Virus record (IMG/VR): IMGVR_UViG_3300026198_000007
Reading direction: 5' to 3' (one strand)
DNA: 20,000 nt
Origin: an uncultured virus (IMG/VR IMGVR_UViG_3300026198_000007)
Taxonomy: Duplodnaviria > Heunggongvirae > Uroviricota > Caudoviricetes
The notes under the pieces are model-generated. The model saw nothing but the letters and a program-made list of their open reading frames with translations, ran no database searches and was not told where the DNA came from. The first letter of the stretch is position 1. The number at the start of each line of letters is the position of its first letter. Position numbers and translations under genes: made by a program. Shown piece by piece: positions 844-19,495 of the stretch.

Positions 844-1815
844 TCAATCAACATTGCCACTTGCCGAAAATGACCTAACGGCCCTGTTCACATAAACGCG
901 ATGCCAAATTTTGCCTAATACCAATATCTTATGTTCAGGGTGCCTAATTGTTCCTCTGACATAAATATCTCCATCTTTTTGTCTGATTTCTGTTACTATG
1001 TGCGCATGACCTGTTCCGGCATTCGGAAAATATCGTGCCAGGTTATTTTGGTCTTTAATCGGGAATCTGTGAACCATTCTACTAGAGTTATCGTCGAACT
1101 GCCCCCATGATTCCATGTGTCTTCTCAGATGTTTGTCTGCAAGTTCTTTTGTTGCAAACCTCGTTTGATAAGCATGTTGAACATTGTAATCATACCACCC
1201 CCACTCATATAAAGGCTCTACTCGCGAAAGTTCTCTCGTCTCTACTCCGGACGGATGGAAGAAAAATTCTCCTTGTCTGACATGCGGTGCGTCTCGGGCC
1301 AGATCTTCCGGAAACAGAGTATCAAACGCCTCATCAACCGAGGTTACATTCTCGGGCAATTCCACCAAAAAATATCCTTCTCGATCTTTGGCACCTGCAT
1401 CAATTGATGACAAGTAGTGTTTACCTTCTATCTCGATTACGGCTGACCCCAGCCTGTGTTCATTGTACTCAATTATTTCTCCTGTTTTTGGATCTCGTCG
1501 AATTCGTGGAATGTATATGTCTGATGATCTGTCAACCATCTTGATAGCTGAGTACTCCGTTGTTACCTGGTTCAATGCCGAAAATGGGATTATCACATTT
1601 GGAGTCAAATGTCTGATGCACAACGATGTATGCCTTGATGTTGATGAACTATAAGTATCCCCGTTGATCAGATATTCGCCGGTATCTAGTCTCGTTGCTA
1701 GGATGAAATGATGCCCGTAGCTGTATAATTTTCGATTGTCATCATGAAAAATATGTTTGCTGTTTCCTCTTTCTTGACGCGCAAATGCGATTACTGCATC
1801 TTTGTTTGATAACAT
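844..1815 (-). CDS. Virus-type hypothetical protein, 323 aa, His-rich C-terminal motifs
   Basis: Long ORF with SD GAGGT. Motifs YSYGHHF, YSSSTSRH, RQGEFFF, GHAH and RHPEH resemble uncharacterised phage proteins (recalled, not searched). Confidence 0.85.
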   Translation of the reverse strand: MLSNKDAVIAFARQERGNSKHIFHDDNRKLYSYGHHFILATRLDTGEYLINGDTYSSSTSRHTSLCIRHLTPNVIIPFSALNQVTTEYSAIKMVDRSSDIYIPRIRRDPKTGEIIEYNEHRLGSAVIEIEGKHYLSSIDAGAKDREGYFLVELPENVTSVDEAFDTLFPEDLARDAPHVRQGEFFFHPSGVETRELSRVEPLYEWGWYDYNVQHAYQTRFATKELADKHLRRHMESWGQFDDNSSRMVHRFPIKDQNNLARYFPNAGTGHAHIVTEIRQKDGDIYVRGTIRHPEHKILVLGKIWHRVYVNRAVRSFSASGNVD

Positions 1816-1964: not shown

Positions 1965-2705
1965 TTACTCCCAGAAATTTTTTATTTCCTCTATCAAGCG
2001 TTCTCTCAGATTTTCTTCGTATTCTACGCACGTCTCTTCTGCCGTTTCGATTAGTTCTTCCATTTTTTCGTAATCATCTAGGTCGTCTGGTTTAAGCCCT
2101 AGACATTTAATTGCTGTTTCGAATCTGATATAGTCCATATCCAAGCTGTTGATGTTCATTATCAACGTTTCAAGTTCATCCCACACTGCATTCCCGTATG
2201 TATATGCTGCCTGGATCTCGGCGATTCGATCAATATCCGTTTCTCCTTCCCACAACCCGGCATCTTCTTCGGCGTATTCATATAACTGACTTAGCAATTC
2301 TGCGGCTTCCGTCATATGATATGATCTATCTACTATCGTTTCGTGGAATATACCGTCTCCGTTGGCGTAATCGTTATTTATGTCTGCGCTGGCTTCACCC
2401 TTGTCGATGAGTTGATCAACGATTTCATCCATGAAATATTCCAAAACCAGATTTGCTGCATCGTCTTCGGCTTCCTGGCGGTAGTTCGTTGGCGGTTCTG
2501 GCGGCAATTCGAAGTGAAATCTGCCCATGAACTCATCTATGCCGTCTAAAGAATGATTGCTGGCAAATTGTATTGCCAGGCTCGTTAACTGTGATTTTAG
2601 GATTTGTTTTGCGTAGTCGGTGTCTCTGTATGACGAGTATCTTGAAATTGGTCTGCTTAGATCAACATATATCGAGGCAATTATGTACGATGGTTCTTGT
2701 TTCAT
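1965..2705 (-). CDS. Highly acidic protein with a putative Ocr (T7 gp0.3)-like DNA-mimic domain
   Basis: Residues 71-246 have 49 D/E versus 11 K/R. EDAGLWEGETDIDRI...VWDELETLI aligns without gaps to the recalled Ocr segment [15 protein letters not shown]...[18 protein letters not shown]. Confidence 0.65.
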   Translation of the reverse strand: MKQEPSYIIASIYVDLSRPISRYSSYRDTDYAKQILKSQLTSLAIQFASNHSLDGIDEFMGRFHFELPPEPPTNYRQEAEDDAANLVLEYFMDEIVDQLIDKGEASADINNDYANGDGIFHETIVDRSYHMTEAAELLSQLYEYAEEDAGLWEGETDIDRIAEIQAAYTYGNAVWDELETLIMNINSLDMDYIRFETAIKCLGLKPDDLDDYEKMEELIETAEETCVEYEENLRERLIEEIKNFWE

Positions 2706-2745: not shown

Positions 2746-3159
2746 TCATGCCAATTCGATTGTGTTCATTACTTTCAGTAAGATATCGGCCATCATCTCT
2801 TTATCAGCCGGATCTAGATCGTCTACCCATCTGCTTTTGCAACTATATGTTGCTACAAGTTCTCCGCTTGGTGCTCTGATTTTTGCAATTAGGTCTCCGA
2901 CGTTTCCATAGTATTGTACTATGTAGACATATGTTCCGATCACTGCTCCAATATCTTCAGCTATTTCGTCTGCGTCGACGGTGCCGGTTCGATAATCGAC
3001 CAATACTCTACTTGATGATACGTCGATGTCTACTTTGTATATGTCATTTGCACCGTCTTCTAATACATCTTCTCCTATCATTTCTATTTCGCTGTAGTCT
3101 GTTCCCGTGGTTATCCCGATTGCTGCGATCAGCAATAACATACCAAGTATTGTTTTCAT
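2746..3159 (-). CDS. Secreted or membrane-anchored acidic hypothetical protein
   Basis: N-terminal signal-peptide-like MKTILGMLLLIAAIGITTG; SD GGAG. Confidence 0.8.
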   Translation of the reverse strand: MKTILGMLLLIAAIGITTGTDYSEIEMIGEDVLEDGANDIYKVDIDVSSSRVLVDYRTGTVDADEIAEDIGAVIGTYVYIVQYYGNVGDLIAKIRAPSGELVATYSCKSRWVDDLDPADKEMMADILLKVMNTIELA

Positions 3160-3672: not shown

Positions 3673-3921
3673 TCACCTCAACATTTCTTCAATTGTTACT
3701 TTTTCTCCGTTCCAGCTGATCCAGACCGGGTGAAAGTTGCCGATTTGTCGGCCATTGCCTACCCGGTATTGGATCTTTCCGCTCGTTCGGTCCCTGATAA
3801 AAACATCAATTTTTGTTCGGTCCCCCATTGCATTCAGGGTATAAACATCCCCAAACGCAACATCAAACTTGGCCCCATGATGCCAATTTGCGTTTCCTGG
3901 CGGAACTTTTCTAATTTTCAT
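3673..3921 (-). CDS. Basic hypothetical protein (MKIRKVPPG...)
   Basis: Part of ORF 3673..4005; ATG at 3921 is preceded by AGGTG. Confidence 0.7.
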   Translation of the reverse strand: MKIRKVPPGNANWHHGAKFDVAFGDVYTLNAMGDRTKIDVFIRDRTSGKIQYRVGNGRQIGNFHPVWISWNGEKVTIEEMLR

Positions 3922-4354
3922 TGATAACACCTTGAAACCGGTATGGACCCCTGCGATTCTCAGCAATGCTTCTATCTGCTTGTGCCAGTTCCCCAGGGTT
4001 GTCAAATGACCTGTAGAATACGAAATTCGTTTTGATCGCCCCTAGATTCTTGGAAAGGTTGGCCCCCATTCTTATCGAGGTATCCAATCCCACCGTTAAA
4101 CCGCCTTCAATCGGGATTATTATGTAGCAATGATCTCCAGGGCCGGGATCAGTTCGAACCACAATTTTAGGGTCATATCCATGATCTTTGAAAAATTGCC
4201 AATTGGCAGATGCCATGTCCGCGCAATCAAAGACATCATCCTCCCAGGGCTGGGTAAAATGATGAGAGTTGACCAGCTCTTCAATTTCTTCAAGATTGCC
4301 GGCAATGACTGTTGGTGTCAAACACAGCAATGCGATAACCCAAATGAATTTCAT
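3911..4354 (-). CDS. Secreted transglutaminase/papain-like Cys-His fold protein (putative)
   Basis: Signal-peptide-like MKFIWVIALLCLTPTVIAG; motif FDCADMA, then GDHCYIII, then a downstream Asp. Confidence 0.6.
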   Translation of the reverse strand: MKFIWVIALLCLTPTVIAGNLEEIEELVNSHHFTQPWEDDVFDCADMASANWQFFKDHGYDPKIVVRTDPGPGDHCYIIIPIEGGLTVGLDTSIRMGANLSKNLGAIKTNFVFYRSFDNPGELAQADRSIAENRRGPYRFQGVINEN

Positions 4355-4512
4355 CTTAGCCCCACCATGCGTCGCATAACCCAGATCAAATGTGTGGTTT
4401 TGAAAGTGGTACACATATCGAATTCATTGCTCCAATATCTAAAATCCTTCTGACTATGCGCAAACGCTGTGCAGTTTACTAATTCTTCTTCACTTATTGT
4501 AAAAGGTTTCAC
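4351..4512 (-). CDS. 53-aa small protein MKPFTISEEELVNC... (not in ORF track)
   Basis: GTG start just after the upstream stop; its stop overlaps the ATG of the next gene (ATGA). Confidence 0.5.
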   Translation of the reverse strand: MKPFTISEEELVNCTAFAHSQKDFRYWSNEFDMCTTFKTTHLIWVMRRMVGLR

Positions 4513-10539: not shown

Positions 10540-10700
10540 TTGGTATCACTCCTTTATTACTTTCCTGGAGGAATCTGAGTCGATTGCCTCATCAGGGTAA
10601 TTAGGGGTCAGTGGACGATGCACCCAAAGGTTAGGAGGCCAATGGAAAAAGTGTCGCCCACTGTTGACGGGTTGTGAAGGGAGTTCAGCAATCCCGCCAA

Positions 10701-10742
10701 TAGCAGTGTCCGGAATCGAACCGGAATTGTGCCTGCACTGCT
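10701..10742 (-). ncRNA. Mini tRNA-like element no. 1 (acceptor stem + T-arm)
   Basis: Minus strand: AGCAGTG CAGGCACAAT TCCGG TTCGATT CCGGA CACTGCT A. Perfect 7-bp acceptor stem, 5-bp T-stem, 7-nt T-loop; no D or anticodon arm. Confidence 0.8.
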
Positions 10743-11560
10743 TCTTTGCCGGAGCCCTGAGTCTCCCCTAGACACAAGGCTCATCGTCGTTGTCTGTGCG
10801 TTGCCCATATCAGGCCCTTTCGCTGTCGGCTATTTGGGCATATGGGCTAGATCGGAAGTAAGGGCATTTTTGGTCTTTGGCAACTACCCTATGGTTCGAC
10901 CAGATTTTTGGTGAGATGGCGTCTCTTAATCTGGTTTACACTAGCCGCCGCATCCGGGCCAGTCAAATTCCCGGAATCGATCAGTTGAGCCGTATCAGAG
11001 TTTGGTCAGTCGGTTAGGCGAGAGGTTATCTTTTTCGTCGGCATTTGCTAGGGGATAGCAAACCGTGATCATTTTTCCCTCTCTCGGCTCGTCACTCTGG
11101 ACTGATCCATTGCTCCGGCTGACTCTGAAGGGCTGGCCTGATCTTTGAACTTCTGGCTTTTAGGTGGAGCCAATGCCGTTTATCAAGTCTTCAACCTGAT
11201 ATTAAGCCTAATCTACGGAATTGAGACCGATTTGCGATTAGGACGGCTAACCATTGATTAACGTGGATTGATTGCTTTTGGCTTTTCGGGACTTCTGAGA
11301 AAATCGGGAGTAGGTTTGCCATCAAATGCCTGCTCCGTATTCCCTGCCTGGAAATTGCTCTGAATCACCTCGATTGATGCCTATTTGAGTTCATTGAGCC
11401 TATACATTGTGATATTGATTTTGACTAACCCCAAACCGCCCAGCAATGAAGATCTCATTTCCCCAGAGTTTGGAGAGATCGCCGGTTTTGGCCTGCCTGC
11501 TCTATTTGGGATTTTGGTTTTGTGCTCCAGCGGTTGGTTATTCGCCTTCGCCATAACCCA
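10743..11560 (-). ncRNA. Candidate large (~800 nt) structured non-coding RNA
   Basis: No convincing ORF; more than 12 mutually compatible helices, including one pairing the two ends; promoter upstream and mini-tRNA downstream. Confidence 0.6.
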
Positions 11561-11573
11561 TCTTAGGTCTTGA

Positions 11574-11590
11574 GGATATAAGCTTTGCTG
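11574..11590 (-). promoter_or_regulatory. Archaeal BRE + TATA promoter for the leader and gene cassette
   Basis: Minus strand CAGCAAAGC TTATAT CC, about 20-25 nt upstream of the first hairpin. Confidence 0.65.
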
Positions 11591-11628
11591 AACAACTATG
11601 CTCTACTGTGATCGATATGGTGATATCT

Positions 11629-12455
11629 TGTACGTTGATGTACATATTTGTACATTGGAAAGGATGGTTGGGGTGGTCGATTTCCGCGATAATGTCGCTT
11701 GATATCGATTTGATGTGGCGGGATGGCGACGAAAGGCGGGAAAATCGGCAACTGGCGGCTGTATATATCATGTACGCACGCGTATATCTATATATAGGGG
11801 AGATATTGCCGCCTGTTATCGATTATATGGGATATATGCGGTCGATGATGGCTACTGATAGCGATATATGGGATATATGTGAGGTATGTGTGATATATTC
11901 GAAAATTAATAAAAATGAAAAAGATGAAACGAAAATTTTTAAAATTAAATTAATTCAATTTACTATTATAGGACTGATCCTGATATAAAGCGATAAGGGG
12001 AGGGGCCGAACCCCAGTGCACAGAAATGAACATTGGCGGCGAGAAGTCGGCAATGGTGCTTGAAGATATGCATTGGGACCCGGAGATGTGCATTGATGTA
12101 CGAATATGTACATTTTGGCGTTGGCAGTAATATAACCCTAGAAATGCCTCAACCCGCCTACGGAACTATTGACTCACCAATGTACATATCTATCCGTCTA
12201 GGGTTATATGAGCGCCTTGTAGTCCAGATCTGAGGATGGTTGAAGGTCCACATTCCGCCAGGCCCAGCCCAGCCCACATATCAAGCAGCATACCTATATC
12301 AATCTCATATGACTCCTATATCATCACTAGCGATCGAATATGTACATCACCGGGTTGGAATTATCAGGAACGGCCCGATTCAAGCACCAATGCGCAAATA
12401 TGTACATCAGGCCGCATATACCAGCATCCCCCAACCCGCGAGCGCGACAATGTAC
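11629..12455. repeat. Cluster of TGTAC(A) motifs, partly in 10-bp tandem phase, including a 23-bp inverted repeat
   Basis: TGTAC at 11629, 11639, 11649, 11771, 12097, 12107, 12181, 12341, 12401 and 12451; 11636-11658 is the inverse of 12387-12409 (21/23). Confidence 0.75.
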
Positions 12456-12821
12456 CTTTCCAGACATTAAACCCCCCATATTTCCACTAGTGTAAACCCC
12501 AAGACAATAATGCTCACATTAATACAATAACACACAGCAGCGACCGAACTGGTGCGCATTAGCGCACCCTTCCCCTCCCGTGGAGGGGATTGAGGGGAGG
12601 AACCAGAAAGCTCCTACGTCACTTTCCGGTTGGGAAAAAAGATTGTATCAGAATCACATGCACCAACATAACCAAACCACAACCCAACCCTAAACCAAAT
12701 AGCATAGCGCCATGCACCACAACAACCAGAACCCACAACCCACATAATACAATCTAAACCCATCAACACCACTACAAATAATATCTACATAGCCTCGATC
12801 CTATAATAGAAAATTGGATTA
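11951..12821. repeat. 23-bp inverted repeat pair adjoining AT-rich tracts
   Basis: The reverse complement of 11951-11973 TAATTCAATTTACTATTATAGGA matches 12799-12821 TCCTATAATAGAAAATTGGATTA at 21/23. Confidence 0.7.
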
Positions 12822-12883
12822 TTTTCGAAAAATTTCAAAAATTTTAGCAGATATCGATTTTAAAAAATAAATATCCGTTGACA

Positions 12884-13099
12884 TCATATCCACCGTAATC
12901 GATTTCTCACAAATCGCAACCAGTCGCGCACTTTGTTCATTATTCGACGTTCGTTGCCACCATTTCTATACTTCATCCTCAACTCCTCCCAAAACAAATC
13001 AGTCTCGGCAACCTTCTCCTTTCTCCAAGCCAGATACTCTTCCTCTGTCATATCATCAGGTCCAAACACAAGAACCCCATTAATTACCTCTGAAATCAC
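12884..13099 (-). CDS. Small hypothetical protein
   Basis: SD GGAGGT before GTG 13099, which overlaps the upstream stop (GTGA). Confidence 0.65.
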   Translation of the reverse strand: MISEVINGVLVFGPDDMTEEEYLAWRKEKVAETDLFWEELRMKYRNGGNERRIMNKVRDWLRFVRNRLRWI

Positions 13100-16853: not shown

Positions 16854-17126
16854 TCACCATTTTTTAGATGTTTTGTCTAATGCTTCAATGCGTTTGATGT
16901 GTTCCTTTATACTTGAAATGGTCTCGGTGGCTTTCCGTAAGTCTGCCTCTTCCTTGTCCAGCAACCACTGCTTTGCTTCCTCAAATGTGTCGAATATAGA
17001 TCTGTCATCGGAAATCTTTTTATGTTTTCGTCCATTGCTATCCGTAACATAGTGATCTGTTTCTGATATGATGTCAATGATTCTAATATCACGAAATGCA
17101 CGCCATGCGATGTATTTGTATTTCAT
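16854..17126 (-). CDS. Virus-type hypothetical protein (FDTFEEAK + coiled coil)
   Basis: ATGA overlap with the NrdG-like gene; SD AGGAG. Confidence 0.8.
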   Translation of the reverse strand: MKYKYIAWRAFRDIRIIDIISETDHYVTDSNGRKHKKISDDRSIFDTFEEAKQWLLDKEEADLRKATETISSIKEHIKRIEALDKTSKKW

Positions 17127-17761
17127 TTCTTCAATACTCCTTTTTCGAGTTTTAGGTTTAGATCGGATATGACCGAGTTCTGGAAATTGGTGAAATAGTC
17201 TTGACTTGTGTGGTCTCCTCTGAGCAGTCTAATGGAAAAGCCCATGTCGATTATGGGTGAAAATGGGTCGATTATGGGAGGGTCTGATTCGTGGACTACA
17301 TAGCGTATCTCAGTAACGTTGGGATCGAGTCTTTCGAGGTTCTGGACTACATTGTCGAATGCCTTGTTATCTCCCGTGTAGGAGTTATATAGCCAGCTTT
17401 CCAGGGATGTTTTGATGTCGAGGAAGACTCTGTCGAAACCTTCCGGGATGGGTCGGCAACCTGAGGTTTCAAGCCCGACTTTGAGACCCAGTGCATGACC
17501 CCAGATCAGCAATTCGAGACATACCTCGGGTTGCATGACAGGTTCGCCGCCAGAGATGACCAGGGCCGATACGTAACGTCGGGCGGCTAGGATTTCTTGG
17601 GCTATGTCGTTGAAATCTACAAGACGTTCGCCGGTGCGTATTTTTTCGTTATGACAGTGAGGACAGGACATGGGACAACCTCTGAGAAAGACTACGTAGG
17701 AAGCGTGCCCCGGCCAGTCGATAGTGGACAGTTCATGACGACCGGCATAGTTCACCTGCAA
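17123..17761 (-). CDS. nrdG: Radical SAM protein, anaerobic ribonucleotide reductase activase-like
   Basis: STIDWPG...VFLRGCPMSCPHCHN (CxxxCxxC), ISGGEP, LETSG, LDIK. Confidence 0.85.
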   Translation of the reverse strand: MQVNYAGRHELSTIDWPGHASYVVFLRGCPMSCPHCHNEKIRTGERLVDFNDIAQEILAARRYVSALVISGGEPVMQPEVCLELLIWGHALGLKVGLETSGCRPIPEGFDRVFLDIKTSLESWLYNSYTGDNKAFDNVVQNLERLDPNVTEIRYVVHESDPPIIDPFSPIIDMGFSIRLLRGDHTSQDYFTNFQNSVISDLNLKLEKGVLKK

Positions 17762-17898
17762 TCCTCTTCCCCCAGTTCTACATCCTCCGGAGATAGGCGG
17801 CCAGTCGTAATCAGATATGAGGTTACGGTTGGTGGTATTACCTCTCCTTTGAAGAACGTGATTTCTAACCGGTTCTTCACTTTAGCACTCAATGGCAT
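17752..17898 (-). CDS. 48-aa hypothetical protein, first gene of the leftward operon
   Basis: ATG 17898 lies ~22 nt downstream of a TATA box (leaderless); its tail carries the SD for the NrdG-like gene. Confidence 0.55.
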   Translation of the reverse strand: MPLSAKVKNRLEITFFKGEVIPPTVTSYLITTGRLSPEDVELGEEDCR

Positions 17899-17919
17899 AG
17901 AAGATGGTAAGTGGGACAC

Positions 17920-17958
17920 ATATTTAAGGCTTTTCATAGGATGCAAAAGAGTTATACA
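17920..17958. promoter_or_regulatory. Back-to-back divergent archaeal BRE/TATA promoters
   Basis: Minus strand GAAAAGCC TTAAATAT (17920-17935); plus strand CAAAAGAG TTATACA (17944-17958); each ~22 nt from an ATG. Confidence 0.6.
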
Positions 17959-17980
17959 GGAGGGACATAGGGAAGACTTT

Positions 17981-18670
17981 ATGCAAGACCCAGTTGTTAT
18001 TGACATCGAGACAATACCGGGCACTGCGCAGCAGATTAAAACGTATAAAGATGTGAAGTGCGCACGGTGCGATCATAATCCAGCAGATCATCCTAAGCAG
18101 AAAAAAGATTATTGTGCAGAATGTGATGAGCAGGCTGCTCTTAGATGGCATACCTCGCGGACTATTTGCATTACGGCTAAGCCGGTGGATATGGACGTGG
18201 CATGTTTTTGTGATCGCGATGAGGTAAAGGTGTTAGAGGATGCTTATGAGTATTTGAGTGAGATTAGGCCTGCAAAGTGGATTGGCTTCAATATCAAGGA
18301 TTTTGATTTGATTCATTTGAAGATGAGGGGTATGGTTAATGATATTCCTTTCATTAATATATTGCCGGTTGGAAAATATGATAGAAGATTGTATGATGTT
18401 TATGATGTACTGGTGGAGGGAAAGTGGAATAAGCAGCAATCGGCTACTTTGGAGATGTTTGCGGCAATGCTCGGGTTCAAAGAGCTGTTGTATGGAAGTG
18501 GTAGGGATGTTCCCAAATGGTTTGCTGAAGGAAAGATGAACAAGATCCGCAAGCACAATATCGGGGATGTGTTGGCTACGGAGCAGCTGTATTTGAGGAT
18601 TTGTGATGCAGAAACAAGGTATAGGAGTAGGGGTAGAAAAATAGATGATGAAGAGGTGTTTGCCCTCTAG
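17981..18670 (+). CDS. DEDD-superfamily 3'-5' exonuclease (PolB-exo/RNase H-like) with Zn-finger-like insert
   Basis: ExoI VIDIET, ExoII GFNIKDFD, ExoIII HNIGD; insert CARCDH...H...CAEC. Confidence 0.85.
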   Translation: MQDPVVIDIETIPGTAQQIKTYKDVKCARCDHNPADHPKQKKDYCAECDEQAALRWHTSRTICITAKPVDMDVACFCDRDEVKVLEDAYEYLSEIRPAKWIGFNIKDFDLIHLKMRGMVNDIPFINILPVGKYDRRLYDVYDVLVEGKWNKQQSATLEMFAAMLGFKELLYGSGRDVPKWFAEGKMNKIRKHNIGDVLATEQLYLRICDAETRYRSRGRKIDDEEVFAL

Positions 18671-19495
18671 TTACATTTTTATCGGGATGCCTCGGAAGAT
18701 GAAACCAGTTGCATCAGAACTTTCTGGTATTGCAGTTGAGCCAGATCCAACCACCGTTAAGGGTTTTGCCTCGGTCACTGGGACGTATTTGTTGGGGTTG
18801 GCCGCGTTCGGAGTGCTGCGTTCTTCTGATGGTCTTGCGAGAGTTATTGTTGGCCCGGCAATTGCTTTCTGAGCAGTTGGCAGGACACCCGATGTAGACC
18901 GCCCAGAACCAATATGCACGTTGCCTGGACTTGTTTCAGGCAGTGACATGGCGGATATTTTTTCTTTGATGGTGGATATTTGGTCACTGGATATGGATGT
19001 GCCCATAGTAGCAATGGTTTGAGTAGGCCGGGCTGATCCAAGCGTAATAGACTTTTTCTCAGAGATGTTGGTTAATGGCTTTTCTTCAGTTACGGCAACT
19101 GTCCTCTTTATGGATGTTGTAACGCCTGAAGCAGGGGATATGGATATTCCACCGAGGACGACTGTTTCTGGTTTTTGGATAGCAATGGTTGGGGTTGAGA
19201 CGGCTTTTTGAAATGTTGTAGGGGTAGAAGATATTGATGATGCAGATATGCCACCGGTCGGGGATATGTCATGTTTTCCGGATGAGACTTCGGACGTAAT
19301 GAGTTTTTTCTCGGGTGCAACAATGCCTCCTGTTGGGGATATTTTGAGGTAAGAAGTTGGAATAGATGAACGAGAGGATGCTGGGGTTTTTGAGGCGGTG
19401 GCTAGAGTTCTCGAAGTATTGGCTTCGTTCGAGACGGATTTGCCCTCGGAAGCTATTTTGGTAAGAAAAGCATGAAAAGGAGTGCGTCGGGCCAT
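18671..19495 (-). CDS. Ser/Thr-rich low-complexity protein, 274 aa
   Basis: SD GGAGTGA; repeats ISPTGGI x2 and ISPASGV. Confidence 0.75.
   Translation of the reverse strand: MARRTPFHAFLTKIASEGKSVSNEANTSRTLATASKTPASSRSSIPTSYLKISPTGGIVAPEKKLITSEVSSGKHDISPTGGISASSISSTPTTFQKAVSTPTIAIQKPETVVLGGISISPASGVTTSIKRTVAVTEEKPLTNISEKKSITLGSARPTQTIATMGTSISSDQISTIKEKISAMSLPETSPGNVHIGSGRSTSGVLPTAQKAIAGPTITLARPSEERSTPNAANPNKYVPVTEAKPLTVVGSGSTAIPESSDATGFIFRGIPIKM

Follow-up and report, generated by a model that had tools for sequence, protein, structure and literature searches.

An unnamed family of hyper-acidic viral proteins with a predicted core resembling T7 Ocr

The open reading frame (ORF) at positions 1965..2705, on the minus strand of a 20,000-nucleotide (nt) stretch of DNA from an uncultured virus (IMG/VR record IMGVR_UViG_3300026198_000007; the whole stretch is hereafter the window), encodes a hyper-acidic, all-alpha product of 246 amino acids (aa) plus a stop codon, with 58 D/E versus 18 K/R residues. 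The protein is a member of a real, conserved and unnamed family, and the core of its predicted structure is closest in shape to Ocr of phage T7, a fold match that we consider suggestive. Ocr (gp0.3; Pfam PF08684; PDB 1S7Z, 6R9B, 7EEW, 8ZEK and 8Q56) is the textbook DNA-mimic anti-restriction protein. The best reading, which we hold tentatively and at a shade under an even chance, is that the protein is an Ocr-like DNA mimic that would block host DNA-targeting defence enzymes, elaborated by an N-terminal domain and an acidic tail. Its sequence, however, does not allow it to be placed in the Ocr family, as the profile match that defines that family was not found.

The conserved acidic core and its predicted shape

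The AlphaFold2 model of the protein, built on an alignment of 146 sequences (mean predicted local distance difference test score (pLDDT) 94.5, predicted template-modelling score 0.80), consists of a small alpha/beta N-terminal domain, a helical core and three tail helices. The fold of Ocr, with which the core is compared, comprises four helices, of which the C-terminal one is long and bent. A Foldseek comparison of this model with the PDB gave nothing at E <= 0.001; Ocr (8zek_B) was found at rank 19 (E = 1.6), with the highest probability (0.47) and the highest target-normalised template-modelling score (0.47) among the matches listed. For two separately modelled members of the family, the predicted structures placed Ocr at rank 1 and rank 2 of 48,161, with about 95-97% of Ocr covered, exactly on the conserved core. 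In a Foldseek search with a model of the stand-alone relative P0176 (146 aa; pLDDT 97.3), Ocr was absent from the best 50 matches.

The core is strongly acidic throughout the family. Core residues 72-190 of the protein hold 30 D/E versus 4 K/R, and over the 146 members the core has a median length of 120 aa, with 30 D/E versus 7 K/R and a median net charge of -22 that never rises above -11. T7 Ocr, for comparison, has 34 D/E versus 6 K/R in 117 aa, and columns that are at least 60% acidic make up 25 of 123 in the core versus 29 of 117 in the Ocr family alignment. The core thus shows what characterizes Ocr in size and charge, namely about 117 aa, an extreme negative charge and few basic residues. 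A simple helical arrangement combined with an acidic composition could match Ocr by chance, in which case the family would serve some other purpose, perhaps replication, regulation or assembly. We consider this distinctly improbable, as Ocr had been named beforehand from the sequence and only then reached structural rank 1 and rank 2 for the two modelled members, and as size and charge are like those of Ocr in all 146 members.

Around the core, the protein is built of clearly delimited parts, all encoded on the minus strand. The N-terminal domain (residues 1-67; 2505..2705) comprises a strand (9-11), two helices (25-50 and 54-60) and a second strand (64-66). Its charge is ordinary, with 9 D/E versus 7 K/R in residues 1-70, and Pfam, PHROGs and NCBIfam contain no match to it. 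A PPEPP linker (residues 68-72; 2490..2504), in which P68 and P71 are invariant and P69 and E70 at least 90% conserved among 18 close homologues, joins it to the Ocr-sized and Ocr-shaped core domain (residues 73-190; 2136..2489), with helices 75-102, 109-112, 116-125, 131-140, 149-152 and 158-186. Within the core, an EDAGL motif (residues 147-151; 2253..2267) lies in the loop and short helix that precede the last long helix. The C-terminal acidic tail (residues 191-246; 1968..2135; 19 D/E versus 7 K/R) has helices 190-202, 212-225 and 229-245, and its length and sequence vary across the family. These limits agree with the N-terminal domain of ~70 aa, the PPEPP linker and the acidic helical tail of ~60 aa proposed earlier from the letters of the window, and a script check returned the same 49 D/E versus 11 K/R for residues 71-246. 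Compared with Ocr, the first helix is longer, the short helix 109-112 is additional, and the domain is set between a 67-aa N-terminal domain and a 56-aa tail.

The homologues were gathered in two ways. A word-indexed search yielded the 146 near-full-length proteins, which are of similar length and have identities down to about 50%, and an exhaustive HMMER search of 1.84 billion cluster representatives (clusters at 50% identity) yielded a core family of 314 clusters at E <= 0.001, 194 of them at E <= 1e-10. The matches confine the core to query residues ~72-190. In many proteins 140-270 aa long (P0160, 141 aa; P0176; P0135, 163 aa) no more than a few residues precede it, and in a few others it lies behind long unrelated N-terminal parts (P0184, 526 aa; P0194, 521 aa; P0212, 463 aa; P0242, 1481 aa). 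Because only 13 of 150 clusters among those listed align from query residue 31 or earlier, we regard the N-terminal domain as a lineage-specific addition. The extra parts of the longer relatives P0184, P0191, P0199, P0212, P0145 and P0242 offered no functional clue and consist of K/E-rich linkers, a Cys-rich N-terminus and one Rho_N match.

Neither the protein nor 20 of its relatives has a family in Pfam, PHROGs or NCBIfam, and a weak CBM_25 match (E = 0.049), which fell short of the cut-off, was set aside as noise. No match was obtained by tblastn against deposited phages and plasmids, and no usable one by an ESM Atlas feature search of the core among named clusters. A core homologue was found in BFVD, namely A0A6J5NV97 (152 aa; Foldseek E = 2.1e-8, 34% identity), which is uncharacterised, comes from an uncultured Caudovirales phage and represents one of the 314 clusters. 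The family to which it belongs is unnamed, is not modelled in Pfam, PHROGs or NCBIfam and has had no function ascribed to it, and the N-terminal domain is absent from most of its members. Positions conserved in at least 90% of the family include D117, D126, Y129, E146, D148, G150, L151 and W152, as well as A166, A167, T169, Y170, A173, V174 and N186. A metal site of the form H-H-E-x-H, seen in the family consensus, was rejected, since only H121 is widely kept and the protein itself has a single histidine there.

Sequence comparison with Ocr and other mimics

The sequence-only reading had started from a resemblance between residues 147-182, which a script check confirmed at nt 2160-2267, and a quoted segment of T7 Ocr. 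The quotation is correct and corresponds to residues 67-102 of the gene 0.3 product, whose translation we took from NC_001604. The gapless 36-residue alignment, with identities at 10 of 36 positions, was reproduced by BLASTP (E = 0.038 in a single pairwise comparison), and TNY and FHETIVD, which had been likened to Ocr as well, are residues 73-75 and 120-126. In this register the EDAGL motif, with D148, G150 and L151 at least 90% conserved in the family, lies opposite E67-D68-S69-G70-L71 of Ocr; in the Ocr family alignment (28 sequences, drawn from 360 Ocr homologues) D68 never varies, and conservation reaches at least 90% at G70 and L71.

The register was examined further by a gapless profile-profile scan of 7216 segment pairs, with 300 column shuffles of the Ocr profile as the null. 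The proposed diagonal (offset 80) ranks 1-2 of all pairs, and other segments on the same diagonal are in the top ten. Its score is exceptional at that fixed place (z = 4.9, 0 of 300 shuffles), and it is reached somewhere by 21% of the shuffles. Offset 80 is also the best of 70 diagonals for the acidic and hydrophobic patterns combined, with a weak correlation (r = 0.20 and 0.32).

The tests for kinship with Ocr by sequence had a negative outcome throughout. No significant profile match to Ocr was obtained in Pfam, by hhalign, by hmmsearch or in a profile search of the PDB. The Pfam scan of the protein gave no Ocr match at E <= 1, and in the scan of all 146 members at the same threshold Ocr was not among the best 25 of 194 families. 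The PDB search by family profile returned 0 matches, and the single-protein search returned neither Ocr nor any other informative match. Alignment of the family with the Ocr alignment by hhalign, for which the full family and the trimmed core were each used with local, global and alternative-alignment settings, gave a probability of 1.3% (4.3% for the trimmed core) and a non-collinear register. Its non-significant cross-matches pair the first helix of the family with the last helix of Ocr and the last helix of the family with the first helix of Ocr; they were not read as a circular permutation. A Smith-Waterman profile alignment scored against column shuffles reached z = 0.6, and hmmsearch in both directions gave 6-8 bits and nothing significant. 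By these comparisons, the similarity to Ocr in sequence alone is not above chance. The proposal of an Ocr-fold anti-restriction protein is therefore supported in part, by core size and charge and, suggestively, by the predicted core shape, but not by sequence or profile kinship, for which no signal was detected.

The two families also differ in where they occur. The Pfam Ocr family was recovered only from T7/SP6-like phages of enterobacteria, whereas the members of the family described here come from an archaeal-type virus, diverse metagenomic viral contigs and genomes of Planctomycetota or Actinomycetota rather than from Autographiviridae. ArdA (Pfam PF07275) is likewise an anti-restriction DNA mimic, and like our protein, ArdA and other DNA mimics are hyper-acidic and reside on mobile elements. 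However, no ArdA family appeared in the Pfam scans at E <= 1 among the matches listed, and no ArdA structure appeared among the fold-search matches listed, where the predicted helical fold matched Ocr. Passages of published work describe inhibition of Type I restriction enzymes by ArdA, ArdB and Ocr alike (PMC10149784).

Spread of the core and its possible role

The core was located on 15 IMG/VR contigs of 20-459 kb, several of the relatives lying within ~5-20 kb of a contig end. Of the species-representative genomes scanned, 6 carry it (four Planctomycetota, one Solirubrobacterales, one unclassified bacterium), and one locus among them is close to an integrase and an excisionase-type helix-turn-helix gene. 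In most viral and genomic loci, core identity to our protein is 42-53%. Across the 14 viral and 6 genomic loci scanned, no recurrent neighbour gene was found, and of the 20 other ORFs in the array that holds the gene, 3 were matched anywhere in 21 loci, in L006 and L017 only. The neighbours elsewhere are mostly small ORFs of unknown function, with occasional DUF932, SprT-like, thymidylate synthase/dUTPase, small terminase subunit and ParB/GmrSD-N-like genes. Two of these can be placed precisely: a DUF932 protein (L012:4372-5553, E = 2.4e-51) lies one gene from a family member, and a SprT-like protein (L018:9010-9516) about 2.5 kb from another. The DUF932 and SprT-like families are associated with anti-restriction regions of mobile elements.

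The core passes among unrelated viruses and mobile elements of bacteria, and its neighbours do not travel with it. A strongly conserved gene that travels alone across very different hosts would be typical of accessory counter-defence genes, and so wide a host spread would fit a ligand as universal as a DNA-binding groove. The same mobility also argues against a chance likeness to Ocr with an unrelated role, as solitary transfer between unrelated elements is what accessory genes typically show, and not core genes for replication or assembly.

Passages in the literature describe the Ocr homodimer as imitating about 24 bp of bent B-DNA (PMC2806950) and Ocr as blocking Type I restriction-modification (R-M) and bacteriophage exclusion (BREX) systems (PMC7261183, PMC3439906). 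On this model, the core of ~118 residues (73-190) would take an Ocr-like four-helix arrangement with a dense, conserved negative surface and would most likely act as a nucleic-acid (DNA) mimic. It may share common ancestry with Ocr and may, like it, form a dimer. Produced in the course of infection, the protein would fill the groove with which DNA-targeting defence enzymes of the host bind DNA, and would thereby shield the viral genome on its entry; if T7 Ocr is a guide, the targets might be Type I R-M or BREX-type methyltransferase complexes. The N-terminal domain and the acidic three-helix tail may extend the mimic or change its targets.

The last helix of the core may point to a different partner. 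Helix 158-186 has no conserved acidic column, unlike the corresponding helix of Ocr, which has several, and this stands out as a difference between the two. The strongest conservation (at least 90%) falls in non-acidic residues, namely W152, A166, A167, T169, Y170, A173, V174 and N186, and the conserved, uncharged AAYTYGNAV motif of this helix could be a specific protein-binding surface. The protein could then be an acidic helical decoy or chaperone for some basic protein that binds nucleic acid, for instance RNA polymerase, a chromatin protein or a further defence sensor, in place of restriction or BREX enzymes, its Ocr-like shape and charge having arisen by convergence or from an ancestry too old to detect. 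The lack of any link to Ocr in the sequence tests would be expected under this account, the virus has a basic chromatin protein of its own (MC1), and T7 Ocr itself is described as also binding RNA polymerase (a passage of PMC7064336; title of PDB entry 6r9b). However, most members are surrounded by genes of bacterial viruses or mobile elements, and the neighbours scanned include no MC1 gene; a single universal kind of target, such as DNA-binding grooves, is a simpler account of the host spread; and Ocr is still the top or near-top structural neighbour. We therefore consider a decoy of this kind unlikely, though a serious competitor to Ocr-like mimicry of DNA.

The viral genome and the meaning of the family

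The window corresponds, in reverse complement, to positions 32817-52816 of a linear, 60,309-base IMG/VR record that is 81% complete, from which it differs at 2 of 20,000 positions. The genome encodes a family B DNA polymerase (PolB), an XPD-like helicase, a primase-polymerase, a RecA/UvsX-like protein and nucleases. Among isolated viruses, PolB is closest to that of haloarchaeal tailed viruses (23-26% identity across 95% of the polymerase), and the genome also has a gene for a homologue of MC1, a chromatin protein of archaea (Pfam PF05854, E = 3.7e-19; PDB 1T23, E = 2.1e-11). The archaeal-type character attributed to the element from the window alone is supported by these two genes, and by this gene content the element looks archaeal. 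The MC1 homologue lies outside the window (G000:C1:55735-56172; L005:15735-16169), carries an N-terminal extension of roughly 30 residues and has no match in deposited phage genomes. Homologues of the protein that are 96% (P0037) and 85% (P0065) identical to it are labelled Mesotoga prima and Candidatus Omnitrophota metagenome-assembled genome, the Mesotoga prima label belonging to a RefSeq WP_ record found on 26 contigs. We rejected these labels as an unreliable guide to the host, since they conflict with the archaeal markers; such bacterial labels on near-identical copies suggest that viral contigs were binned into bacterial genomes. Of the ORFs scanned in the 60-kb record, none was recognisable as a capsid or terminase gene, and the window holds no tRNA and no Rfam family.

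The gene is part of a long leftward array of small genes, all on one strand, which starts beside a non-coding region rich in repeats (~10.6-13.0 kb of the window); it is ~8 kb from the start of this array and is therefore not its first gene. The Ocr gene is described in a passage of PMC12455610 as the first early gene, in the leading, first-injected end of the genome. The non-coding region (window 10600-13000, ~2.4 kb) contains an 18-nt element, based on TGTACA palindromes, in five copies, together with further direct and inverted repeats, a local rise of the G+C content (0.50 at 10-11 kb) and a change in the sign of the GC skew, and it may be a replication origin or control region.

Directly downstream of the gene, a 323-aa protein (844-1815, minus strand) matches phrog_29643 (E = 6.8e-15) and phrog_7247, both PHROGs of unknown function, and its C-terminal part has a weak relative (25% identity, E = 3e-9) in locus L017, which also holds a family member. 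Upstream, two small proteins (2746-3159 and 3911-4414, both minus strand) have hydrophobic, signal- or anchor-like N-termini and fall into no assigned family. Towards the other end of the window, a radical-SAM protein (17123-17761, minus strand) is QueE-like by its PHROG match (E = 5e-14) and also resembles anaerobic ribonucleotide reductase activase. It is convergent with a 357-aa ORF (17597-18670, plus strand; phrog_403, 'DNA polymerase exonuclease subunit', E = 2.4e-13) that it overlaps by about 165 nt, and the true start of the latter is probably further downstream. Next to this ORF, a 274-aa protein (18671-19495, minus strand) is extremely Ser/Thr/Pro-rich and internally repetitive, likewise with no family assigned. 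Beyond the window, one ORF of 3141 aa (G000:C1:3768-13193) bears a PEGA domain at its C-terminus and adjoins a second PEGA protein of 408 aa and two nuclease-like proteins (SNase / phrog_452).

In the literature searched, which comprised listings and abstracts together with passages of PMC7911831, PMC12455610 and bioRxiv 10.1101/2023.04.06.535777, neither this family nor any mimic of the Ocr type from an archaeal virus was described, although this does not prove that none exists. At least 314 protein clusters, drawn from viral metagenomes, mobile elements of bacteria and an archaeal-type virus, contain a domain with the charge and the predicted shape of Ocr that sequence searches do not connect to it. 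A bolder proposal, which we put forward as doubtful, is that this hyper-acidic domain of ~120 residues is a large, unnamed sister branch of the Ocr fold, a pan-viral DNA-mimic module spread across phages, integrated elements of Planctomycetota and Actinomycetota, and archaeal viruses, and set here in a three-part protein whose N-terminal domain and tail would lengthen or retarget the mimic. If this were true, Ocr-type mimicry would be a widespread means of counter-defence across both prokaryotic domains rather than a speciality of T7-like phages.

If the domain is Ocr-like in its action, the known reach of the Ocr counter-defence mechanism would become much wider, and a sizeable block of viral dark matter would gain an annotation. 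Members of the family would then also be candidates for inhibiting Type I R-M and BREX-like systems in hosts, archaea included, whose genetic tools are limited by restriction.
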